Shown: positions 2,850 through 51,783 of the stretch, piece after piece
Numbering within the stretch: the first letter of the stretch is position 1
Layout of the letters: each line of letters starts with the position of its first letter
NCBI GenBank assembly: GCA_035624615.1
Contig: DASPRE010000054.1
Location: 9,584 to 73,583 of the forward strand
DNA length: 64,000 nt
Origin: Burkholderiales bacterium
GTDB taxonomy: Bacteria; Pseudomonadota; Gammaproteobacteria; Burkholderiales; JAHFRG01
Reading direction: 5' to 3'
Position numbers and translations under genes: made by a program
Notes under the pieces: model-generated
The model's database searches: none
The model's input: only the letters and a program-made list of their open reading frames with translations
Told to the model about the DNA's origin: nothing

Positions 2850-4304
2850 ATGCTCAATTACAGTTTAAAACAGCTATCCGAGCTGCTTGCCGCGAAAAAA
2901 ATTTCCAGTGTCGAGCTCACCCAGGAATTTCTTCGACGCATCGCAGGCCTCAACTCGCGGTACAACGCGTTTATCACCGTAGACGAACAAGCGAGCTTGC
3001 AGCAGGCGCGCGCGGCAGATTCCAAGATCGTGCAAGGCCTGGCGCAGCCTTTAACCGGCATTCCCGTTGCGCAAAAAGACATTTTCTGCGCTAAAGGTTG
3101 GCGAACCACATGCGGCTCGAAAATTCTTTCCAATTTCGTTGCGCCTTACGATGCCCACGTGGTGCAGCGCCTCAACGAAACGGGAATGGTCAATCTGGGC
3201 AAGACCAACATGGATGAATTCGCGATGGGTTCATCCAATGAGACGTCGTTCTATGGTCCGGTGAAAAACCCCTGGGATACCAAAACCGTTCCCGGCGGCA
3301 GCTCCGGCGGCTCTGCGTGCGCGGTTGCCGCGCGCATGGCGCCCGCAGCGACTGGCACCGACACCGGCGGTTCCATTCGCCAGCCCGCAGCGCTTTGTGG
3401 AATATCGGGAATAAAGCCGACCTACGGCCTGGTATCACGCTACGGCATGATTGCCTTTGCGTCCAGCCTCGATCAAGGTGGCCCGATGGCGAAAAGCGCG
3501 GAAGATCTCGCGCTGATGTTGAATGTCATGGCCGGGTTCGACGAGCGTGATTCAACCAGCCTGAAACGTCCAGTAGAAGATTATACCCGCGACCTGGGGA
3601 AGCCGCTGACTGGGCTTAAAATCGGACTGCCGCAAGAATATTTTGCCGAAGGCTTAAGCGACGATGTAGCGCGGGCGGTGGATGCTGCCGTTGGACAATA
3701 TCAGAAACTTGGCGCAACCACAGTTGATATCTCGCTTCCGAACACCAGGCTCTCGATTCCGGTGTATTACGTGCTTGCTCCGGCGGAAGCTTCGTCTAAT
3801 CTGTCTCGCTACGATGGCGTGCGTTACGGTTACCGCGCGCCGAAATACAACGATCTTCTCGACATGTACTGCAAGACCCGCGCCCAGGGATTTGGGGCTG
3901 AAGTAAAACGCCGCATACTTATCGGCACCTATGTCTTGTCGCACGGCTACTACGATGCGTATTACCTCAAGGCGCAGAAACTGCGGCGGCTGATTGCGCA
4001 GGATTTCGCACAGGCCTTTAAAAAATGCGATGTCGTCATGGGGCCCACCAGTCCGACCACCGCGTTCAATCTCGGCGAAAAATCGGGCGATCCGGTGCAG
4101 ATGTATCTATCAGACATTTACACCATCGCGGTGAACCTTGCCGGTCTTCCCGGAATGTCGATTCCCTGCGGCTTTGGCGATAAGAAACTTCCGGTGGGCC
4201 TGCATATCATCGGCAATTATTTCAGTGAAGCGCGCATGCTGAATATCGCGCACCAGTACCAGCTGGTGACGGATTGGCATAGCCGCATGCCGGAGGGAAT
4301 CTGA
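2850..4304 (+). CDS. gatA: Asp/Glu-tRNA amidotransferase subunit A (amidase family)
   Basis: 484 aa with the amidase signature [13 protein letters not shown] and the [15 protein letters not shown] motif; sits in the gatCAB order. Confidence 0.95.
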
Positions 4305-11229: not shown

Positions 11230-12951
11230 TTAACTGTTCAGGCGGGAAAGTAGTTCGCGTACTTTATCCGGTTCGTCGGCCTTGAGAATTTTTTGTGTGA
11301 GTCCGGCGATTTCGGGCAGGCTGGTTTTGAGCACCTGTTGCTTGACACTGAGTAGATTGGCCGGGTGCATGGAGAACTGGCGCAAACCAAAGCCCAGCAG
11401 CAAGCGCGTGAGCGAAACATCGCCGGCCATCTCGCCGCAAACGGCAATCGGTACTCCGGCTTTGTTTGCAGCGGTTATTGTATGGGCGATCAAATGCAGC
11501 ACCGCAGGGTGTAGCGGATCGTAAAGATGGGCGACAGCATCGTCGGCGCGGTCTATCGCCAATGTGTACTGAATAAGATCATTGGTGCCAATGGAGAGGA
11601 AGTCGAGCTTTCTAATGAATACACCGAGCGCCAAAGCCGCCGCAGGAATTTCGATCATACCGCCGATTTCAACCCGGTGGTTATATGGGATATGATCTTT
11701 GTCGAGGCTGATTTTCGCCAGCTCGATGAACTGCAACGTTTGGTTGAGCTCCGCGACATTGGAAAGCATCGGAATCAGAATGCGGATATTGCCGTAATCG
11801 GTGGCCCGGAGGATCGCGCGTAATTGTGTATGGAACATATATGGTTCGGCGAGGCAAAGCCGGATAGCGCGCAAGCCTAATGCCGGATTAGGACCGCGCT
11901 CGGCACCATTCATGCTCTTGTCGGCGCCCAAATCCAGCGTGCGAATAGTGACCGGCAGACCGCGCATTTTTTGCGCAACTTTGCGGTACGCTTCCACTTG
12001 CTCCTCTTCGCTGGGCAAATCGGCACGGTTCATGTAGAGAAATTCAGTCCGGAACAGGCCTATGCCGGTCGCGCCATTTTCCTTAACTTGGTCGATGTCC
12101 TGCGGCAACTCGATGTTGGCTTGCAGTTCAACTGCAGTGCCGTCAAGGGTCGTGGCGCGGGTAAGTTTCAGGCGTTTAAGTTTTTGCCGCTCGAGCTCTC
12201 TCTGATTCTGGCGCAGCTTGTACTCTGCGAGTATCTGATTGTCAGGATTGACGATCACCACGCCTTGGGTGCCGTCGATCACCAGCACGTCCTCTTCGTG
12301 CACCAGCTGCCGTGCCTGGTGCAGAGCTACAATCGAAGGAACATTCAGGCTGCGCGCAACAATTGCGGTGTGCGACATTGGTCCGCCAATGTCGGTAATG
12401 AAAGCGGCAAAGCGATGCTGCTTGAACAGTATGAGTTCTGCCGGACTCAGGTCATGTGCAACCAGGATATTATTCTGCTCCAGGTCGATGGGCGGCGGTA
12501 AATGTCCTGGATGGCCCATGAGCGCCTTCAGCACCCGTTCGCCGATCTGGATTACGTCGGCCTTGCGCTCGCGCAGATAACTATCCTCGATCCGGTCAAA
12601 CCGCTCAAGCAATTCGTCCATTTGCTGTTTGAGCGCCCACTCGGCGTTGCAGTGCTGTTCCTCGATGCGTTTCGGGGCGGCTTTGGAAATAATAGGGTCG
12701 GAGAGAATCATTTGGTGCAGATCGAGAAATGCGGAGAGTTCCGCAGGGGCGTCAACCGCCATATTTTCTTGCACGGCCTGCAGTTCTGTTTGTACTTCCT
12801 TTATCGCGGAAGCGAAGCGCGCGATTTCGTCCGCGACTTGCTGCTCGCGCACGGTGTAATGTGCAACTTCCAGCGTAGCGTGCGAAAGCAAATGCGCCTG
12901 CCCGATGGCAATGCCCTCGGATACGCCAATGCCGTGCATGGTGAAGCTCAT
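11230..12951 (-). CDS. ptsI: Phosphoenolpyruvate-protein phosphotransferase (PTS Enzyme I)
   Basis: 573 aa; GGPMSHTAIVARSLNVPSIV (active-site His region) and the C-terminal PEP-utilising TIM barrel motif GTNDLIQYTLAIDR. It has no GAF domain, so it is ptsI-type rather than ptsP. Confidence 0.9.
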   Translation of the reverse strand: MSFTMHGIGVSEGIAIGQAHLLSHATLEVAHYTVREQQVADEIARFASAIKEVQTELQAVQENMAVDAPAELSAFLDLHQMILSDPIISKAAPKRIEEQHCNAEWALKQQMDELLERFDRIEDSYLRERKADVIQIGERVLKALMGHPGHLPPPIDLEQNNILVAHDLSPAELILFKQHRFAAFITDIGGPMSHTAIVARSLNVPSIVALHQARQLVHEEDVLVIDGTQGVVIVNPDNQILAEYKLRQNQRELERQKLKRLKLTRATTLDGTAVELQANIELPQDIDQVKENGATGIGLFRTEFLYMNRADLPSEEEQVEAYRKVAQKMRGLPVTIRTLDLGADKSMNGAERGPNPALGLRAIRLCLAEPYMFHTQLRAILRATDYGNIRILIPMLSNVAELNQTLQFIELAKISLDKDHIPYNHRVEIGGMIEIPAAALALGVFIRKLDFLSIGTNDLIQYTLAIDRADDAVAHLYDPLHPAVLHLIAHTITAANKAGVPIAVCGEMAGDVSLTRLLLGFGLRQFSMHPANLLSVKQQVLKTSLPEIAGLTQKILKADEPDKVRELLSRLNS

Positions 12952-44264: not shown

Positions 44265-45773
44265 ATGCCCAGAACACTGTGTATTATTCTAATGCTGATC
44301 ACGCCCGCGGTATTCGCCGAAGCCACGCTCAATATCGGCTCCAAGCGGTTCACCGAATCCTATATTCTCGGCGAAATTCTGACTCAGGCCGCAGGATATG
44401 CCAACGAAGCAAAGGTGGTCCACAAACAGGGACTGGGCAACACCGGGATATTGTTTGCCGCATTGCAAAGCGGGAGCATCGACATTTATCCGGAATATTC
44501 CGGGACCATCTGGTTCGAGTTGCTGAAAAAGAGTGCGGCCGGAGATCTCGCAGCGCTCAATCGCGCGCTTGCCCCACTCGGCTTGGCGGCGGCCATTCCG
44601 ATCGGGTTCAACAACACTTACGCACTCGCGATGCAAGATGCCCGCGCGGCCAAACTCGGTATTTCGAGCATCAGCGATCTTGCTTACCATCCTGAACTGA
44701 AGTTCGGACTGTCGCAGGAATTCCTGAACCGCAAGGACGGATGGTTGCAACTCAAAAGCGCATATGCGCTGCCGTTAGAACCGCTAGGCCTCGATCACGG
44801 TCTGGCTTATGAAGCGCTGACCGAAGGCAAGATAGATGTCATGGATATTTACTCCACCGATGCCAAAATCGCCAAATACCATTTGCGCGTGCTCAACGAT
44901 GACAAACACATTTTCCCCTCTTACGATGCGTTGTTGCTTTATCGCAGCGATGTGCCGGGTCGTTTTCCCAAAACCTGGGCGGCGCTAGAGAAACTAGAGG
45001 GAAAGATTTCCGCAAATCAAATGGCGGCGATGAACGCTGAAGCGGAGCTTGAAGGTAAACCTTTTCCCGCAATCGCTGCCGATTTCCTCGCTTCCGGAAC
45101 AGTACCAAAGCCGGGCGGCCGGGCCAGCAAAAATTTGTTAAGGCTCATTTTTGCTGTGGACTTCTGGCGCCTGACCGCTGAACATTTGCTTCTGGTATTT
45201 GTGTCGCTTGGCGGAGCGATAGTGCTGGGCATTCCACTCGGGGTCTGCGCCGCCCACGTGCCCGTGGCCAGGCAGCCAATTCTTTCTGTGGTCGGAGTAA
45301 TTCAGACCTTGCCATCGCTCGCACTGCTCGCATTTCTGATTTCCATGCTCGGCACCATCGGTGTAATTCCGGCGCTGATCGCGCTGTTTCTTTATGCGCT
45401 GCTCCCGATTGTGCGAAATACTCATGCCGGTATTAGCGACATCCAGCCTTCGCTTACAGAGGCGGCGCAATCGCTGGGGCTGCCATTCTTCGCGCGCCTG
45501 CGGCTGATTGAACTGCCGCTGGCGTCGCGCGCGATTCTTGCCGGTATAAAAACCTCCGCAGTCATTAATGTTGGGACGGCGACCATTGCCGCTTTTGTCG
45601 GCGCCGGCGGTTATGGCGAGCGCATTGTTCAGGGCTTGGCGTTAAACGATGCTGCAACCATGCTTGCCGGGGCGATTCCCGCCGCGGCGCTGGCGCTGCT
45701 GCTGCAAGGTGGTTTTGAATTGCTTGACCGCTGGCTGATTCCCGCGGGATTAAGGGCAGCTACTTCGGCTTGA
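44265..45773 (+). CDS. Fused substrate-binding protein / permease of the osmoprotectant ABC transporter
   Basis: The N-terminal half is OpuC/ProX-like SBP (LNIGSKRFTESYILGEIL...IDIYPEYSGT). The C-terminal half is a BPD-type permease with an EAA loop (LTEAAQSLGLPFFARLRLIELPLA). Confidence 0.85.
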   Translation: MPRTLCIILMLITPAVFAEATLNIGSKRFTESYILGEILTQAAGYANEAKVVHKQGLGNTGILFAALQSGSIDIYPEYSGTIWFELLKKSAAGDLAALNRALAPLGLAAAIPIGFNNTYALAMQDARAAKLGISSISDLAYHPELKFGLSQEFLNRKDGWLQLKSAYALPLEPLGLDHGLAYEALTEGKIDVMDIYSTDAKIAKYHLRVLNDDKHIFPSYDALLLYRSDVPGRFPKTWAALEKLEGKISANQMAAMNAEAELEGKPFPAIAADFLASGTVPKPGGRASKNLLRLIFAVDFWRLTAEHLLLVFVSLGGAIVLGIPLGVCAAHVPVARQPILSVVGVIQTLPSLALLAFLISMLGTIGVIPALIALFLYALLPIVRNTHAGISDIQPSLTEAAQSLGLPFFARLRLIELPLASRAILAGIKTSAVINVGTATIAAFVGAGGYGERIVQGLALNDAATMLAGAIPAAALALLLQGGFELLDRWLIPAGLRAATSA

Positions 45774-46587
45774 CGAATTTCAGCGTCATTCGGTCTGACT
45801 CGCCAATGGCGAGATATTTTTCCCGGTCCTGGTCGCCGAGGCGGAGCGTCGGCGGCAGAGTCCACACCCCTTTGGGATAGTCCTTGGTGTCTTTGGGATT
45901 GGCGTTGATTTCCGATTTAGCGATCAGCCTGAAACCGGCGTGCCGCGCGAGCTCAATCACATAATCTTCGGTTACATAGCCGCTGCGTATCATCTCTTGC
46001 AGCGGCGTTCCTGGTTTGGCTCGATGATCGGTGACACCGAGGGTGCCACCGGGTTTCAATGCGACATAAAATGCCTTGAAAGTGGCTTCAGCATTGCCGT
46101 CTTTCGCCCAGTTGTGCACGTTGCGAAAAGTCAGCACCATGTCCGCCGAGCCAGGCGGAGCAATCGTGGTGTGTTCCGGCGCCTGCAGCTGAGTGAGAAT
46201 GATCTTGTCGTATATTTCGGGATATTGTGCGAGTTTTTTCAGATATTCCCGCCCGATTTCCCTGCGGATGTCGGGAGTAGCCTTTGATTGTAAGGCGAGG
46301 CCCGCCTCATAGAGCCTGCCTTTATCTCGCAAAACCGGCGCGAGGATTTCAGTGTACCAGCCGCCGCCCGGCCAGATCTCTACTACCGTCATGTTCGCTT
46401 CAAGCCCGAAAAACAGCAATGTTTCCTTGGGATGGCGGTAAACATCGCGCGCCTTGTTTTTCGCGTCGCGATGATCTCCTGCGATGGCCTGGTCTAGCAA
46501 CAGTTCGGTGTCGCTTGCCGCGGAAGCGGATGAAGAGAAACACGCCAACATGGTTGAAAACAGTATTGCTCTCTTAAGCCGTTTCAT
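45760..46587 (-). CDS. Class I methyltransferase-fold protein with an N-terminal signal peptide
   Basis: MKRLKRAILFSTMLACFSSSASA signal, then VVEIWPGGGWYTEILAP (a glycine-rich SAM-binding-like motif). The start was set at ATG 46587 instead of the longer ORF. Confidence 0.8.
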   Translation of the reverse strand: MKRLKRAILFSTMLACFSSSASAASDTELLLDQAIAGDHRDAKNKARDVYRHPKETLLFFGLEANMTVVEIWPGGGWYTEILAPVLRDKGRLYEAGLALQSKATPDIRREIGREYLKKLAQYPEIYDKIILTQLQAPEHTTIAPPGSADMVLTFRNVHNWAKDGNAEATFKAFYVALKPGGTLGVTDHRAKPGTPLQEMIRSGYVTEDYVIELARHAGFRLIAKSEINANPKDTKDYPKGVWTLPPTLRLGDQDREKYLAIGESDRMTLKFVKPK

Positions 46588-46832
46588 TTTAGCTCCGCGG
46601 GAATTATCAAGCATACCTGATTCTGACCGGCTTCTGCCTGAATAGTGCAATCTGTAACCAGCCGGTGAGAGCAAGCGTGGCAGTATCGGCACTGCCGGAA
46701 ATCGCGCAGCCCAGCGGGCCATCGAACCACTTGATTCGGCGATCCCGGGAAGAGATATGGACGAGGCAATGAGCTGCCCCCGACTTTGACTCCTTATCTC
46801 AACCCTCTCCTGCGAGCGCGCTCGAACTCCGG

Positions 46833-47207
46833 CTACTGCTTGTGCACATGCACGACACCGGTCATGAAGGGATGCAAGGTGCAGATGTAACTGAAGTCAC
46901 CTTCGCTGGCAAAAGTATGCTCGAACTTGTCGTCGGTATCCAAACCTTTCGAGGCAAAACTCTTGTCGTTGCTGGTCACCGTATGCGGCGTTTCGTCGCG
47001 ATTGGTCCAGATGACCTTGGTGCCGGGTGCAATGGTAATGTCCTTCGGCGAGAACGCGAACTTCGTGATATTGACATCGACGGCCGCCACAGGCGGAGCT
47101 GCCGCCGCGAAAATCGCAGGCATCACGAAGGCTGTGCATAAGACCAGCCCAAGAGCGGCGCAGGCGCGAAGCAGACGGATGGTGTTGCGAGAGAAAGCGT
47201 AGCTCAT
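46833..47207 (-). CDS. Cupredoxin (type-1 blue copper, plastocyanin/amicyanin-like)
   Basis: Signal/anchor sequence and copper ligands in the classic arrangement: ...DETPHTVTS... and YICTLHPFMTG (Cys-x2-His-x2-Met). Confidence 0.8.
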   Translation of the reverse strand: MSYAFSRNTIRLLRACAALGLVLCTAFVMPAIFAAAAPPVAAVDVNITKFAFSPKDITIAPGTKVIWTNRDETPHTVTSNDKSFASKGLDTDDKFEHTFASEGDFSYICTLHPFMTGVVHVHKQ

Positions 47208-47263
47208 GTTACTTTCCTTTTATACAATGACAAATTTCGCAAACTTGGGCACCTGGCGGCGGT

Positions 47264-48226
47264 TCAGCGATCGAGCGGCCTGTCGATCAGCGCAAGTTCA
47301 TGCCGTCCGCGCACAACGCTGAGCTGGCGCGTGCCAAGCACCTTGCCGAGTTCGCCGGCGGGCACTGTTACCGGACCGGGCTCGCCAATGCCCGCCTGTC
47401 CGGGTGTGGGCAATGGGTAGGCGAGTGACATCGCCGTGTGCAGCGCGATATGGCCTTCGACCTTCTGCAGAACTTGATGGATATGTCCGTTCAGCACTGT
47501 GACCGATCCGAACGGACGCAACAGCGCCGTCGCCTGCACGGAATCGGCCGTGCCCCAACCCCAGGGTTCCCAAATCGTCCACAGCGGAATATGGGCGAGC
47601 ACCACGATTGGTGTTGAGTGCGAGACGCGCGCGAGATCGCCTTTCATCCAGGTGATTTGCTCGTCGCCTAGCGCCGCCATCGTGCCCATCTTAAAGTTAA
47701 GCACATTGTTCAAGCCGATGAAATGCACGCCGCCCTGATCAAAGCTGTACCAGGACTTGCCATTGCCATCGTGATCGAAAAACTTGAGATAGCCGTTCAC
47801 GCCTTCATCGATCGCGTCGTGTTCGCCCGGAATCGTATGCACGCGGTCAACATGGATTTCCTTCAGCACCTCGCGCGCCTGACTGAATTCCTCGGGTTTC
47901 GACAAATGGCTCACATCGCCGGTATGTACCACGAAGGCTGGCGGTTGCGATAGCGCGTTGATGTCGGCGATGGCGCGGCGCAGGCTGCCGACAACGTCGG
48001 GATTGGCCGCTTTGTGAAAGCCGATATGGGTATCGCTAATCTGTACGAACGTCAGCGCATTCTTTTCGGCCGCTGCGGGGGTGCCCGTGCTCGTCGCGCC
48101 GAGCGCACGCGGAACACCGCCGGCAACTGTCCAGACGACAGCGGCGCCGGTCCAGGCGGCTAGACAGCTCAATGCCTGGCGGCGGGCAGGATTGTGGCCG
48201 GGGTCAGCGGGGTCATATTTGCTCAT
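47264..48226 (-). CDS. Tat-exported metallophosphoesterase (calcineurin-like, CpdA-type)
   Basis: Twin-arginine signal (PARRQALSCLAAW...) and metallophosphoesterase motifs: QISDTHIG, HTGDVSH, GEHD, LAHIP, NGHIH. An AGGAG RBS precedes the start. Confidence 0.85.
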   Translation of the reverse strand: MSKYDPADPGHNPARRQALSCLAAWTGAAVVWTVAGGVPRALGATSTGTPAAAEKNALTFVQISDTHIGFHKAANPDVVGSLRRAIADINALSQPPAFVVHTGDVSHLSKPEEFSQAREVLKEIHVDRVHTIPGEHDAIDEGVNGYLKFFDHDGNGKSWYSFDQGGVHFIGLNNVLNFKMGTMAALGDEQITWMKGDLARVSHSTPIVVLAHIPLWTIWEPWGWGTADSVQATALLRPFGSVTVLNGHIHQVLQKVEGHIALHTAMSLAYPLPTPGQAGIGEPGPVTVPAGELGKVLGTRQLSVVRGRHELALIDRPLDR

Positions 48227-48269
48227 TTGAGTCTCCTTTTGTATTAAGTTTAAGGTAGTCCTTAACCTG

Positions 48270-48300
48270 TATTACTGAATTCGCAACCGAAATATTCCCC
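48270..48300 (-). promoter_or_regulatory. ECF-type promoter candidate upstream of the metallophosphoesterase-cupredoxin genes
   Basis: Minus strand reads GGGGAATA, then 17 nt, then GTAATAC. This is one of three copies of this motif within 500 bp. Confidence 0.55.
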
Positions 48301-48319
48301 GAAGTTGCCTTCGGGGAAT
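48294..48319 (-). terminator. Perfect 11-bp stem hairpin downstream of the small secreted protein gene
   Basis: ATTCCCCGAAG, then ttgc, then CTTCGGGGAAT. On the minus strand it is followed by ATTTCGGTT, a weak U-tract. It overlaps the -35 of the promoter candidate above. Confidence 0.55.
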
Positions 48320-48352
48320 TCCGGAAATTAACTATTCAGACTCGAGGTATTA

Positions 48353-48601
48353 CTAGCCGCCCTGGTTGCTGGGAAGCAATTGGCTATCGAGCCATGAGTC
48401 GGGCGAGCTGTTTGTCTTGTCCGCCGGCTCGATCACTTGCTTCTGGGATTCCGTGCAGGGGATGTCCCCGTATTGCTGGGAATTGCGCGCCATTTTGACT
48501 TCTACTTTAGCGTCTTCCGCTGCAAGAGCAGGCTGAAGCGCAGAGATCGAAAGCAGGGCGCCCAATGCAAGAGCTGACAACTTGTTGCTGTACGTAAACA
48601 T
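48353..48601 (-). CDS. Small secreted protein of unknown function (82 aa precursor)
   Basis: AGGAGA RBS 7 nt upstream of ATG 48601; signal peptide MFTYSNKLSALALGALLSISALQPALA. The mature part is about 55 aa, acidic/polar, with a single Cys. Confidence 0.6.
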   Translation of the reverse strand: MFTYSNKLSALALGALLSISALQPALAAEDAKVEVKMARNSQQYGDIPCTESQKQVIEPADKTNSSPDSWLDSQLLPSNQGG

Positions 48602-48664
48602 TTTTGAATCTCCTATATGAAGGTTTAGGTGTGACGATCTGCCAATCAAACCGTCTACACCCTG

Positions 48665-48695
48665 CATAACTTGCGAGCCTCAATTAATATTCCCC
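48665..48695 (-). promoter_or_regulatory. ECF-type promoter candidate upstream of the small secreted protein gene
   Basis: Minus strand reads GGGGAATA, then 17 nt, then GTTATGC. Confidence 0.55.
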
Positions 48696-48717
48696 GATTT
48701 CGTTTTAATTTAAGTTT

Positions 48718-48748
48718 GGGAATAAAATAAGCAGATACCAGGTAATAC
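48718..48748 (+). promoter_or_regulatory. ECF-type (autoregulatory) promoter candidate upstream of the ECF sigma gene
   Basis: Plus strand reads GGGAATA, then 17 nt, then GTAATAC. Caveat: the -10 lies only about 16 nt before the TTG start, so the leader would be very short. Confidence 0.45.
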
Positions 48749-48763
48749 ATAATAGGAAGAGCC

Positions 48764-49282
48764 TTGAGCGACACGAATCGACGCTTTGAAAAAGTCGCGC
48801 TGCCGCATCTCAGCGCCGCCTATAACCTGGCGCGGTGGCTGACCCGGAATGATCACGACGCGGAGGATATGGTGCAGGAAGCGTACTTGCGCGCTTTTAA
48901 GTTTTTTGACAGCTTTCGGGGAGATGATGGACGCGCCTGGCTGCTGGCCATCGTGCGCAATACTTGTTACACCTGGTTGAAACAGAATCGCATCCAGGAG
49001 CTGCACGATTCTTTTGACGAAGAGGCGCACGCCGAAGCGGACAGCGGTAGCGATCCGCAAACCTTCATGCTGCAAAACGCCGACAAGAAGTTGCTTGACC
49101 GTGCGCTTGAAGCACTGCCGCTGGAATTCAGGGAAATATTGATTATGCGAGAGCTTGAAGATCTTTCCTACAAGGAAATTGCGACGGTGGCAGGCATTCC
49201 GCTGGGCACGGTGATGTCGCGGCTCGCCCGCGCTAGGAACATGCTTCGCGCTTCGCTTGAACGGAATATGCAGGAGAAATGA
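48764..49282 (+). CDS. ECF-family RNA polymerase sigma-70 factor
   Basis: 172 aa; region 2 (DAEDMVQEAYLRAFKFFDSFRG...WLLAIVRNTCY) and region 4 (LPLEFREILIMRELEDLSYKEIATVAGIPLGTVMSRLARAR). TTG start. Confidence 0.9.
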   Translation: MSDTNRRFEKVALPHLSAAYNLARWLTRNDHDAEDMVQEAYLRAFKFFDSFRGDDGRAWLLAIVRNTCYTWLKQNRIQELHDSFDEEAHAEADSGSDPQTFMLQNADKKLLDRALEALPLEFREILIMRELEDLSYKEIATVAGIPLGTVMSRLARARNMLRASLERNMQEK

Positions 49283-49283
49283 A

Positions 49284-50060
49284 ATGAATTGCGATGAAAG
49301 CCGGAATCTGATTCACGGCTACCTCGATAGGGAAATCGATTTGGTGCGTGCTATGGAAATTGAAAAGCACCTTGAGGGCTGCGCTGCTTGCAAGGGGGTT
49401 TACTCTCGGGAGACCGCTATGCGATCCGCTATTCGTGAGCGCGGGAGCTATTATGTTGCGCCAAAATATCTTGAAGCGCGCATCCGTGCTGCGCTGCCCA
49501 AGCCCCGCAAAAAAGCGACTGTATTCGGACAGCCAAGCTTGAACTTGTTAGGTTTTGCCGCTTCAATGGCTTTTGCAGTGGTAATTACCTGGGGCGTAGC
49601 GATGCAGCTCAATACGGCTACTGCAAATGATCGTCTTGCGGATGAAATCCTCTCAGCCCATGTACGCTCGCTGATGGCGAATCATTTGGTGGATGTTGAT
49701 TCGTCAGACAAGCACACGGTGAAGCCTTGGTTTAATGGCAAGTTGGATTTCTCACCTGAGGTTTTCGATTTGGCTGCGCAGGATTTTCCGTTGATCGGCG
49801 GCCGTCTTGATTACATCAATGGCAGACCGGTGGCTGCGCTGGTATACCGGCATCGCAAGCATTTCATCAATTTTTTTCATTGGCCTGATGAATCGCAGGA
49901 GAAAAACTTCGTACGTACGAAAACCAAGCAGGGGTATAACCTGGTTTACTGGGCAAATTCGGGAATGGGATATTGTTGGGTGGTTTCCGACTTGCAGGAG
50001 AACGAGCTCATGCAGTTTGTGAAACTTTTGCAACAGCAACAGCGCGCGGCCGTGTCGTGA
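49284..50060 (+). CDS. Anti-sigma factor (zf-HC2 N-terminus, single TM, periplasmic C-terminal domain)
   Basis: MNCDESRNLIHGYLDREIDLVRAMEIEKHLEGCAACKG (HxxxCxxC anti-sigma domain) and one TM segment (LLGFAASMAFAVVITWGVA). The ATG lies 1 nt after the sigma stop. Confidence 0.8.
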   Translation: MNCDESRNLIHGYLDREIDLVRAMEIEKHLEGCAACKGVYSRETAMRSAIRERGSYYVAPKYLEARIRAALPKPRKKATVFGQPSLNLLGFAASMAFAVVITWGVAMQLNTATANDRLADEILSAHVRSLMANHLVDVDSSDKHTVKPWFNGKLDFSPEVFDLAAQDFPLIGGRLDYINGRPVAALVYRHRKHFINFFHWPDESQEKNFVRTKTKQGYNLVYWANSGMGYCWVVSDLQENELMQFVKLLQQQQRAAVS

Positions 50061-50064
50061 GGCG

Positions 50065-51783
50065 TTACTTTTTCGGAATGTAAAGATCGGTGACGGTGCC
50101 TTCCGCCACTTCGGCGGAGAAAAACACCGTTTCTGACAGCGTGGGATGCGGATGGATGGTGAGAGCAATATCCTGCGCGTCGGCTCCCATTTCCAGCGCG
50201 AGCACGGTTTCGGAAATCAGCTCGCCTGCGTTTGGCCCGACTATGCCTGCGCCGAGGAGTCTGTTGGTGCTCTTGTCGAATAACAACTTGCTCATACCTT
50301 CATCGCGTCCCTGCGCGAGGGCGCGCCCGCTTGCCGCCCAGGGAAATACCGCCTTTTCAAATTCGATGCCTTGTTCGCTGGCTTGAATTTCGGTGAAGCC
50401 CATCCACGCCACTTCCGGGTCGGTGTAGGCCACCGAAGGAATAGTGCGCGCATCAAACGCCACCTTATGTCCGGCTATGACTTCGGCAGCAACCCTGCCC
50501 TCATGGCTTGCCTTGTGCGCAAGCATTGGTTCTCCAACAATATCGCCAATTGCGAAAATGTGCGGCACGTTGGTGCGCATTTGCTTGTCAACCGGGATAA
50601 TTCCTTTGTCAGTCACCTGAACACCGGCATTCTCTGCACCTATCGCTTTGCCATTGGATTTTCTGCCAACCGCTACCAGGACGCGGTCGAATAGCTGCGG
50701 TTTCGGCGCATTGTTTCCATCAAAATGAACTTTTAATCCGTCCTTTTGTGCTTCGATTTTTGCAGCTTCGGTATTGAGGTAAATTCCCTCGTAGCGCTTT
50801 TCGATGCGTTTTTGCAGGGGCTTGATAAGATCGCGATCCGCACCGAGCATCAATCCATCGAGCAGTTCCACCACGCTGATTTTCGAGCCCAGCGCGTCGT
50901 ACACACACGCCAATTCCAAACCGATAATGCCACCGCCAATTACCAGCAATCTTGGCGGAATATCCCGAATTTGCAGCGCACTCGTTGAATCCATAATGCG
51001 CAGGTCGTCTGGGTAACCCGGAATTTTCGCCGCCTGCGATCCCGCTGCGATAATGCAGTAATCGAAGGACACTGTTTTCCCGCCATCTCTGGTTTGCACC
51101 TGCATCATATTCGGTGATGCGAACTGGGCCACGCCTTGCACTACCTGCACCTTGCGCTGCCGGGCGAGTCCCGCAAGGCCCTTGCTGAGCTTGGCGGTCA
51201 CGCTCTGCTTCCAGCCTCGAAGTTTGTCGGTTTCGATTTCGGGTTTGCCGAAATTCACGCCTTGACGAGCCATCTCCTCCGCTTCGCTGATAACCTTCGC
51301 TACGTGCAGCAATGCTTTCGATGGAATGCATCCGACGTTGAGGCAAACGCCGCCCAGATCGGAATAGCGTTCGATCAATACCACCTGCTTCCCCAGATCG
51401 GCGGCGCGGAACGCCGCAGTATAACCGCCCGGCCCGGCGCCCAGCACCACGACTTCGGCACGAATATCAGCACTGCCGGGTTTGCCAGCCTGAACAACGG
51501 GCGTGGGTTTAAGCGGTTCAGCGGTTTCGGCAGTTACTGAAGCTACAGCTTCCAAAGTGAGAATCAATGAGCCTTCAGATACCTTGTCGCCGGTTTTGAT
51601 CCTGAGCTCCTTCACCACGCCCGCCTGAGGGGCGGGAATATCCATGGTTGCCTTGTCAGATTCCAACGTGACCAGCGGATCTTCCTTGGCGACTTTGTCC
51701 CCAGGTTTCACCAGCACTTCAATTATCGGTACATCCCTGAAATCGCCGATATCGGGGATCGTGACGTCGATGAGCTTGTTCAT
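50065..51783 (-). CDS. lpdA: Dihydrolipoyl dehydrogenase with an N-terminal lipoyl domain
   Basis: 572 aa; lipoyl motif LESDKATMDIPAP, FAD motif GAGPGGYTAAFRAA, redox-active disulfide GGVCLNVGCIPSK, and a C-terminal HPHPTLSE. Confidence 0.93.
   Translation of the reverse strand: MNKLIDVTIPDIGDFRDVPIIEVLVKPGDKVAKEDPLVTLESDKATMDIPAPQAGVVKELRIKTGDKVSEGSLILTLEAVASVTAETAEPLKPTPVVQAGKPGSADIRAEVVVLGAGPGGYTAAFRAADLGKQVVLIERYSDLGGVCLNVGCIPSKALLHVAKVISEAEEMARQGVNFGKPEIETDKLRGWKQSVTAKLSKGLAGLARQRKVQVVQGVAQFASPNMMQVQTRDGGKTVSFDYCIIAAGSQAAKIPGYPDDLRIMDSTSALQIRDIPPRLLVIGGGIIGLELACVYDALGSKISVVELLDGLMLGADRDLIKPLQKRIEKRYEGIYLNTEAAKIEAQKDGLKVHFDGNNAPKPQLFDRVLVAVGRKSNGKAIGAENAGVQVTDKGIIPVDKQMRTNVPHIFAIGDIVGEPMLAHKASHEGRVAAEVIAGHKVAFDARTIPSVAYTDPEVAWMGFTEIQASEQGIEFEKAVFPWAASGRALAQGRDEGMSKLLFDKSTNRLLGAGIVGPNAGELISETVLALEMGADAQDIALTIHPHPTLSETVFFSAEVAEGTVTDLYIPKK

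Follow-up and report, generated by a model that had tools for sequence, protein, structure and literature searches.

Three near-identical promoter-like motifs lie near a gene predicted to encode a sigma factor of the extracytoplasmic function (ECF) type in a 64,000-nucleotide (nt) stretch of DNA from a Burkholderiales bacterium (GenBank assembly GCA_035624615.1, contig DASPRE010000054.1, positions 9,584 to 73,583 of the forward strand), referred to here as the window. Do these motifs define a single regulon, which sigma factor reads them, and what would such a regulon produce? The locus is very probably a compact, self-amplifying ECF sigma/anti-sigma module with three promoters, the output of which is a metallophosphoesterase (MPE) paired with a cupredoxin. 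Comparative evidence points to a real and autoregulated regulon, with the sigma factor encoded at the locus as the likely reader of the motifs. Regulation of this kind is a textbook ECF circuit, and its recovery mainly shows that a reading of raw sequence can find a real regulon. The features concerned are as follows (window coordinates).

48718 to 48748, plus strand: predicted ECF promoter by which the sigma/anti-sigma operon would be autoregulated (-35 GGGAATA(AAAT), 17-nt spacer, -10 GTAATAC; 0 mismatches)
48664 to 48694, minus strand: predicted target promoter, divergent, of the gene for an 82-amino-acid (aa) secreted protein (GGGAATA-N17-GTTATGC; 2 mismatches)
48269 to 48299, minus strand: predicted promoter of a second target, the MPE-cupredoxin operon (GGGAATA-N17-GTAATAC; 0 mismatches)
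48764 to 49282, plus strand: 172-aa sigma factor of the ECF type (group 4) (Sigma70_r2 and Sigma70_r4_2)
49284 to 50060, plus strand: membrane anti-sigma factor, 258 aa, with an N-terminal zinc-binding anti-sigma (ZAS) domain, one predicted transmembrane (TM) helix, and a conserved periplasmic domain
48353 to 48601, minus strand: predicted 82-aa secreted protein, signal peptide MFTYSNKLSALALGALLSISALQPALA cleaved before AE (ending ALA-AE)
47264 to 48226, minus strand: MPE-fold protein with a twin-arginine translocation (Tat) signal, 320 aa (Metallophos, 48.5 bits; RR at residues 15 and 16)
46833 to 47207, minus strand: secreted 124-aa cupredoxin with type-1 (blue) copper, encoded 56 nt past the MPE gene

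An earlier sequence-only reading had assigned the sigma factor, anti-sigma factor, small protein, MPE, and cupredoxin genes in this way, and these assignments hold by open reading frames (ORFs) and Pfam matches. It had also proposed one autoregulatory and two target ECF promoters, which the footprint, the sigma-proximal sites of 67 loci, and the sites upstream of 53 of 54 MPE genes described below support.

Promoter-like sites in the window and in related loci

A pattern search of the 64-kb window found three copies of GGGAATA-N17-GT(A/T)AT(A/G)C inside 480 bp. With up to two mismatches to GGGAATA-N17-GTAATAC allowed, there were exactly 3 sites in the window, compared to 0.13 expected from dinucleotide-preserving shuffles (n = 100), and 0 of the 100 shuffles reached 3 sites. 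The sequence-only reading had described three near-identical motifs in about 480 bp, the same 17-nt spacing in all of them, and 12 identical nt in the two minus-strand copies; the first claim agrees with these counts, and the other two were confirmed directly in the sequence, the stretch common to the minus-strand copies being TCGGGGAATATT. Its coordinates were right for the plus-strand site; for both minus-strand sites they lacked one base on the -10 side, and counted with an extra 5' G these sites run from 48695 to 48664 and from 48300 to 48269.

All three copies were correctly oriented, with a start codon 16 to 63 nt downstream. The TTG start codon of the sigma factor gene lies 16 nt 3' of the plus-strand site, with a ribosome-binding site (AGGAAG) between them, and the ATG of the MPE gene lies 43 nt downstream of its promoter. 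ECF sigma factors require near-consensus promoters, which would account for the near identity of the three sites. A looser pattern, GGAAT-N18-GTWAT, had 4 matches in the window (0.13 expected). The bare core GGAAT-N18-GT was found 11 times (6.75 expected) and is not rare alone; what marks the sites out is therefore the extended -35 together with the -10 heptamer and their clustering.

The anti-sigma factor had at least 378 relatives among GTDB species genomes, and in a large protein collection at least 8,000 candidates each for the sigma and anti-sigma factors scored below the E-value limits. The 80 best loci, from at least six phyla, formed the comparison set (some counts are over about 78 or 82 loci). 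They span Burkholderiales and other Betaproteobacteria, several classes of Acidobacteriota, Binatia-like “delta proteobacteria,” Chloroflexia, Ktedonobacteria, Ignavibacteriales, Verrucomicrobia, and others.

All three promoters were present in the four closest loci (L001 to L004; sigma factors 84 to 95% identical). When these loci were aligned with the window, the -35 and -10 blocks were invariant and the spacers had diverged, as in a phylogenetic footprint. Upstream of the sigma factor gene, almost all loci matched the consensus of 69 of them, CGGGAATAAAAT-N12-RGTCT, with exactly 18 nt from GGAAT to GT; in betaproteobacterial members, including the window, the -10 reads GGTAAT or GGTATA in place of GTCT. 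Across the loci, GGAAT-N18-GT occurred 229 times, compared to about 70 expected. Of these sites, 67 preceded the sigma factor gene by no more than 100 nt (67 of about 78 loci, at fixed spacing), and 36 lay on the other strand, at most 200 nt away. Core-pattern counts replaced a position weight matrix (PWM) because the matrix, when built from the sigma-proximal promoters alone, learns the AAAAT extension and underscores the divergent promoters (11.1 versus 23.6).

Sites of the form GGAAT-N17/18-GT were found within 400 nt upstream of 53 of 54 Tat-MPE genes (those with a recognizable RR leader), compared to 104 of 1,080 random 400-nt segments from the same loci. Most of these sites lay 80 to 130 nt from the RR codon, and the Binatia-like loci use N17. 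The sequence-only reading had recommended that synteny be checked in related genomes. Clustering of all ORFs in the loci placed the MPE in 61 of 82 of them, usually divergent from the sigma factor gene. With few exceptions, a cupredoxin of the type-1 Cu or CuA type either comes next or forms part of the same protein. As judged from this distribution, the link among sigma factor, MPE, and cupredoxin is an ancient functional unit and no local accident.

Instead of a promoter, the repeated element might be an operator bound by a DNA-binding regulator or might belong to a family of short dispersed repeats. The divergent copies do hold a partial palindrome (GGAATATT(CC)), and some divergent -35 elements read GGAATATTCC, a perfect palindrome (loci L012 and L050). 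However, the element consists of two conserved blocks at a fixed 17- or 18-nt spacing with a free spacer, it is strand specific with respect to the downstream gene, and its distance to start codons is that of a promoter. No palindrome is present in the sigma-proximal copy (GGGAATAAAAT), and no Rfam or repeat family matching the motif region was found. An operator or repeat was accordingly considered highly improbable, and the sites are treated below as candidate ECF promoters.

Real ECF promoters could also be read mainly by a paralogous ECF sigma factor encoded elsewhere, in which case the locus would be a target or a node of cross talk. Such behavior has precedent in the RpoE1, RpoE4, and RpoE6 sigma factors of Sinorhizobium meliloti, which cross-activate each other's operons (PMC6180224), and groups ECF26 and ECF207 have been classed together as possibly “promiscuous” (PMC13492112). 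Set against this, the motif travels with the sigma/anti-sigma pair across many phyla and stands upstream of the sigma factor gene in the 67 loci noted above. Because the motif is strictly associated with this sigma factor gene, which is the expected signature of autoregulation, the local sigma factor is taken as the main reader, and a predominantly paralogous reader was judged improbable from the 64-kb window and its related loci.

The module also occurs in cultured bacteria. On Ralstonia solanacearum megaplasmids, the annotated genes are those for cytochrome c oxidase subunit II (COX2-like), a metallophosphoesterase, the sigma factor, and the anti-sigma factor, and both promoters are present in an R. 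solanacearum locus (L082); on the megaplasmid of strain GMI1000, the MPE gene is at about 2,069,017 to 2,069,808. Cupriavidus campinensis, Caballeronia, and Gemmatirosa also have the module. The Cupriavidus necator locus (L081) contains the sigma and anti-sigma factor genes and no MPE gene, and its neighboring genes had no Pfam match.

In some loci without an adjacent MPE gene, the divergent GGAAT-N18-GT site precedes genes for DoxX (L019, L020, and L035), a YNCE-like propeller (L053 and L064), or a Tat ferritin-like protein (L045). These are other exported or membrane proteins and would therefore be lineage-specific alternative targets of the sigma family. In eight loci, plus-strand GGAAT-N18-GT sites cluster just past the anti-sigma factor gene, about 1.4 to 1.6 kb from the start of the sigma factor gene (in L081, at 6267), so that some lineages may have additional targets downstream. 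No GGAAT-N18-GT site was found just past the anti-sigma factor gene in the window, where a convergent dihydrolipoamide-dehydrogenase-like ORF (50065 to 51783) is located.

The metallophosphoesterase and its cupredoxin partner

The Metallophos (PF00149) score of the window MPE is above the Pfam gathering threshold of 21.5 bits, which places the protein among the calcineurin-like metallophosphoesterases. Four of the five MPE motifs are canonical (DxH, GD, H, and GHxH), and motif III is a variant, G-E-H-D. Residues invariant in 53 relatives included the RR pair, D65-x-H67, G103-D104, G134-E135-x-D137, H168, N174, H212, and G247-H-I-H250. Motif III (window residues 134 to 137) read G-E-(H/N)-D in 53 of 53 members and never GNH(D/E), with the Asn always replaced by Glu. 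W222, W224, T226, and D228 were likewise invariant. Export through the Tat pathway is predicted from the leader, which is RRQALSCLAAWTGAAVVW in the window, with RRxFL in 51 of the 53 relatives.

Among solved structures, the MPE profile came closest to Rv0805/Icc class III phosphodiesterases, to GpdQ, and to purple acid phosphatases, with E values of about 3e-9 to 1e-8 (about 39 bits). The DxH, GD, H, and GHxH motifs are common to these enzymes and the window MPE, which differs from them in its G-E-(H/N)-D motif III, its Tat leader, and its obligate pairing or fusion with a cupredoxin.

The cupredoxin, which is probably cotranscribed with the MPE, matched Copper-bind (40.4 bits) and Cupredoxin_1 (36.2 bits) in Pfam. 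The type-1 copper ligand pattern (H...C-x2-H-x2-M) is present as ETPHTV ... C-T-L-H-P-F-M. With E values of 6e-14 and 4e-11, respectively, a blue copper domain protein (5fc9) and amicyanin were among the best solved relatives.

Two paralogous MPE types, about 37 to 38% identical to each other, were distinguished among the loci. MPEs of the window type are followed by a type-1 Cu cupredoxin, and those of the other type are followed by a COX2-like cupredoxin with the CuA signature CxxxCxxxHxxM. The two types interchange at one position even among the closest loci, with the window type in the window, L001, and L003 and the other type in L002 and L004. In the latter pair, the other paralogue (3049 to 3954 in L002 and 2996 to 3901 in L004) and its CuA-type cupredoxin occupy the same position behind the same promoter, next to a sigma factor that is 91% identical to that of the window. 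Judged by gene content, one MPE-cupredoxin type seems to have been exchanged for the other as a cassette.

Fusions of the MPE with a type-1 cupredoxin, with both Metallophos and Copper-bind matched in a single ORF, were found in L034 (3011 to 4270; 419 aa) and L023 (5921 to 7177; 418 aa). In four further acidobacteriotal loci (L036, L039, L041, and L056), ORFs of the MPE cluster were 412 to 430 aa long, and these are candidate fusions by length. Such fused genes argue for a physical and functional partnership between the two proteins, of which no description was found in the searchable literature.

Several relatives in the Rv0805, GpdQ, and purple acid phosphatase group carry Fe-containing centers, and those of the purple acid phosphatases are redox sensitive. 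Redox coupling of the metal center of the MPE is suggested by its obligate pairing with a cupredoxin and by the fusions. The output of the regulon would then be a periplasmic enzyme with a di-metal center, coupled to the cupredoxin and produced under envelope redox or metal stress. A more specific proposal can be offered only tentatively, as one possibility that is less likely than not to be correct: the output of this sigma family would be a hitherto unrecognized periplasmic redox system, in which a Tat-exported phosphoesterase-fold protein with an invariant G-E-(H/N)-D metal site exchanges electrons, through its di-metal center, with a dedicated, sometimes fused, type-1 Cu or CuA cupredoxin, and the ECF pathway, with a His/Asp/Met-rich periplasmic sensor, would answer a periplasmic oxidant, a sulfur species, or a metal.

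The lasting interest of the locus lies in this phylum-spanning and sometimes fused MPE-cupredoxin effector, a new lead, unlike the promoter code and the anti-sigma type. Sigma/anti-sigma and MPE-cupredoxin pairs have been kept together under the same promoter code from Acidobacteriota to Burkholderiales, including the plant pathogen R. solanacearum. The fusions and the exchange of type-1 Cu for CuA partners argue that the “phosphoesterase” works with an electron carrier, which, to our knowledge, is not what the metallophosphoesterase fold is known for. Because the module is present in R. solanacearum, a genetically tractable organism, the signal and the enzyme activity are directly testable.

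The sigma/anti-sigma pair, described ECF systems, and the proposed circuit

The window sigma factor contains regions sigma2 and sigma4 only (Sigma70_r2, 54.2 bits; Sigma70_r4_2, 59.1 bits), and its length is within the range of about 170 to 200 aa that is typical of ECF (group 4) sigma factors; its TIGR02937 score was 100.4 bits (cutoff, 42.9). The anti-sigma factor gene starts 1 nt past the stop codon of the sigma factor gene, and a predicted cotranscribed cognate anti-sigma factor together with a predicted autoregulatory promoter is likewise consistent with group 4. The top NCBIfam model for the sigma factor was NF009185/PRK12533, with 227.6 bits, compared to 125.6 bits for the next family. 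This score is below the whole-protein cutoff of 248, which homologues from R. solanacearum (309.6 bits) and C. necator (298.7 bits) passed. The PRK12533 model and the Ralstonia and Cupriavidus proteins have an N-terminal extension of about 25 to 35 residues that the window sigma factor lacks, and the -10 of PRK12533-type relatives reads GTCT or GTAAA, compared to GTAAT in the window. The R. solanacearum homologue resembles the window in its divergent Tat-MPE and cupredoxin genes and in having both promoters. By sequence, the window sigma factor is a divergent relative of the PRK12533 family; membership is uninformative about function because the model has no functional name.

The anti-sigma factor matched zf-HC2 (37.9 bits; cutoff, 22.2), and the predicted zinc site, C3 and H29-x3-C33-x2-C36, was invariant in 42 homologues; in JGI annotation, homologues carry the label “anti-sigma factor RsiW.” An AlphaFold2 model built from the 42-sequence alignment placed a TM helix at residues 89 to 109, followed by a periplasmic domain of about 150 residues. 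More than 35 positions of this domain were also invariant, exceeding the number in the ZAS domain. They included His, Asp, and Met residues between residues 126 and 236, such as H126, M131, D137, D142, H144, and H193. No Pfam family matched the periplasmic domain.

Among described systems, the closest counterparts are the ECF26 systems of S. meliloti (RpoE1-EcfR1, RpoE4-EcfR4, and RpoE6-EcfR6), which answer sulfite compounds. The published ECF26 consensus is -35 GGAATA and -10 GT, and the RpoE1 promoter mapped by 5' rapid amplification of cDNA ends reads GGGAATAAAT...GTCTTA (PMC6180224). This promoter is close to the consensus of the 69 loci, and the predicted sites in the window and the related loci fit the ECF26 form. 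ECF26 anti-sigma factors have the same three-part architecture as the window protein (ZAS domain, TM helix, and RsiW-like periplasmic domain), and the window protein aligned end to end with Sinorhizobium EcfR1 (residues 6 to 231/246; 27% identity; E = 7e-14). Both systems are autoregulated, at least by prediction in the window, and in both the neighbors or targets include small proteins that are secreted and redox proteins of the periplasm. The targets of RpoE4, sorT-sorU-azu2, include pseudoazurin (PMC6180224), so that characterized ECF26 outputs are likewise periplasmic redox enzymes with small electron carriers. ECF26 targets are a sulfite dehydrogenase, a catalase, or a protease, whereas those of the window would be an MPE and a cupredoxin. 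Sinorhizobium/Ensifer loci were reached with a degenerate RpoE1 promoter pattern, as a search with the exact RpoE1 promoter gave no match; a degenerate RpoE4 pattern gave a single match, on an unrelated Dependentiae contig, and was discarded.

The window sigma factor was 32 to 38% identical to RpoE1 and RpoE6, which scored 75 to 101 bits on PRK12533 and were best matched by PRK12511 and PRK12546. These scores suggest a group neighboring ECF26 rather than ECF26 itself. As quoted in a 2026 study, the ECF Hub promoters are GGAATA/CGTTTT for ECF26 and GAATAA/GGTCT for ECF207, the group of RpoO (Rmet_0597) of Cupriavidus metallidurans (PMC13492112, Table 4). Compared to the ECF26 -10 CGTTTT, the ECF207 promoter is the better fit to the cross-phylum consensus GGGAATAAAAT-N12-RGTCT, a putative link made through the motif; its -10 (GGTCT) differs from the GTAAT of the window. 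ECF18 was rejected because it has RskA-like anti-sigma factors (PMC7826278) and a different promoter, GCATCC/CGTAT (PMC13492112). The system is therefore filed as ECF26-like and PRK12533 type, without a group number.

The ECF12 systems (SigR/SigH with RsrA/RshA) were also compared. The GGAAT-N18-GT(T) geometry is that of SigR/SigH promoters, and the complete C...H-x3-C-x2-C set of ECF12 ZAS domains is also present in the window anti-sigma factor. ECF12 outputs are cytoplasmic thiol repair enzymes, in contrast to the exported proteins encoded here, and ECF12 anti-sigma factors of the RsrA type are soluble and cytoplasmic. The window system is not assigned to ECF12 because its anti-sigma factor, with a TM helix and a periplasmic domain, is predicted to be membrane bound.

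The sequence-only reading had stated that the regulon fits no characterized ECF response. This still holds for the regulon as a whole within the searchable literature; it does not extend to the promoter and anti-sigma types, which were already described for ECF26 (PMC6180224). Its suggestion of envelope, metal, or redox stress is still a guess. The promoter code, the anti-sigma type, and a curated but unnamed sigma model (PRK12533) are already known. The main text of the ECF Hub description paper makes no mention of MPE or cupredoxin contexts (PMC7826278), and Rhodius 2013 has no text on ECF26, ECF13, or GGAAT. Large-scale predictions of ECF promoters and regulons were published by Todor et al. 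in 2020 (PMC7776599), and cultured members of the PRK12533-type family are probably covered there.

How the sigma factor would be released bears on which signal the module answers. In ECF systems, the anti-sigma factor sequesters the sigma factor, and its inactivation frees the sigma factor for its own operon and its targets. At rest, the window sigma factor would be held by the zinc-binding N-terminal domain of the membrane anti-sigma factor; upon inactivation of the latter, free sigma factor would steer RNA polymerase to the three GGGAATA-N17-GT(A/T)AT promoters. The first would drive the operon of the sigma factor itself, giving positive feedback and a fresh supply of anti-sigma factor, the second would drive the small secreted protein, and the third would drive the Tat-exported MPE-fold protein and the blue copper electron carrier. 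The likeliest trigger would be a periplasmic event acting on the conserved C-terminal domain, either binding of a ligand or metal or regulated proteolysis as for RsiW, with oxidation of the ZAS cysteines less likely. A periplasmic input is favored because invariant positions are more numerous in the periplasmic part of the protein than in its anti-sigma domain.

Oxidation of cytoplasmic ZAS thiols, as in RsrA, would make the anti-sigma factor a cytoplasmic redox sensor with periplasmic outputs. The invariance of C3, H29, C33, and C36 is compatible with such a mechanism, and the C-to-H spacing in the window equals that of C11 and H37 in RsrA. The N-terminal 70 residues had RsrA (TIGR03988) as the best NCBIfam model, at 43.3 bits under a cutoff of 62.5, the promoters have the SigR/SigH geometry, and the closest solved structure for the sigma factor was SigH of Mycobacterium tuberculosis (E = 2e-22). 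The TM helix and the higher invariance of the periplasmic domain speak against thiol release, as does the extracytoplasmic location predicted for every output. Moreover, zinc has a structural role in RsiW and other membrane-bound ZAS proteins, the release of which is by proteolysis. Release by thiol oxidation was therefore regarded as unlikely, though with more weight than either the paralogue or the operator explanation, and the periplasmic input is retained in the proposed circuit.

Several points weigh against the proposed module. The -10 elements of the window (GTAATAC and GTTATGC) are unlike the GTCT of most relatives, and all three window promoters are predictions. A predicted promoter is no guarantee of activity, since a start site could not be detected, in the conditions used, for the predicted autoregulatory promoters of the related ECF genes rpoO, rpoL, and rpoP in C. 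metallidurans (PMC13492112). Paralogous ECF sigma factors with GGAATA-type promoters cross-activate in S. meliloti (PMC6180224), and a second sigma factor elsewhere in the genome could read the window sites. The AlphaFold2 model of the anti-sigma factor (mean predicted local distance difference test score, 55.8) is too uncertain in the periplasmic domain to be used; its most conserved stretch (residues about 131 to 162) scored about 30. The proposed sensing mechanism is wholly conjectural, and the redox role of the MPE is proposed from the cupredoxin partnership and a weak similarity to Fe-containing phosphoesterases.

The small secreted protein and minor features

The 82-aa protein had no Pfam or NCBIfam match. 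Among the analyzed loci, tblastn matches were found in L001 (94% identity), L002 (70%), L003 (44%), and L004 (36%) and in no others, which confines the protein to close relatives. Its C terminus reads DSWLDSQL, and in L012 the equivalent position (about 4015 to 4278, minus strand) is occupied by a secreted protein of 88 aa with two DxWLxQQL repeats, so that a C-terminal DxWLxxQL is common to the two proteins. They may represent a family of small periplasmic partners of the anti-sigma factor.

Two further motif-like sites in the window were set aside. The fourth GGAAT-N18-GTAAT match (11771 to 11798, plus strand) was taken as chance because it is within a 573-aa minus-strand ORF (11230 to 12951) and is without the GGGAATA extension. 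A weak plus-strand site, GAAAT-N18-GTATTAC (48324 to 48353), which would read antisense into the small ORF, is probably also due to chance; its PWM score (10.0) was at the level of shuffled sequence, and its -35 was not conserved in L001 to L004.

A methyltransferase-like ORF (45760 to 46722, minus strand), 110 nt past the cupredoxin gene, was considered as part of the module and rejected, because it was syntenic only in L002 and L004. Its Methyltransf_23 match was below threshold, and it has an apparent internal signal peptide.

One additional feature is located 3' of the small ORF.

48294 to 48319, minus strand: terminator-like hairpin with an 11-bp stem and a GCAA loop, followed by AUAUUU

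The predicted RNA fold had an energy of -24.4 kcal/mol (z = -4.4). The hairpin was kept in L001 to L003, and L004 carried a compensatory C>T/G>A pair. Because the 3' arm of the hairpin holds the -35 GGGGAAT, the putative terminator of the small-ORF unit overlaps the predicted MPE promoter.

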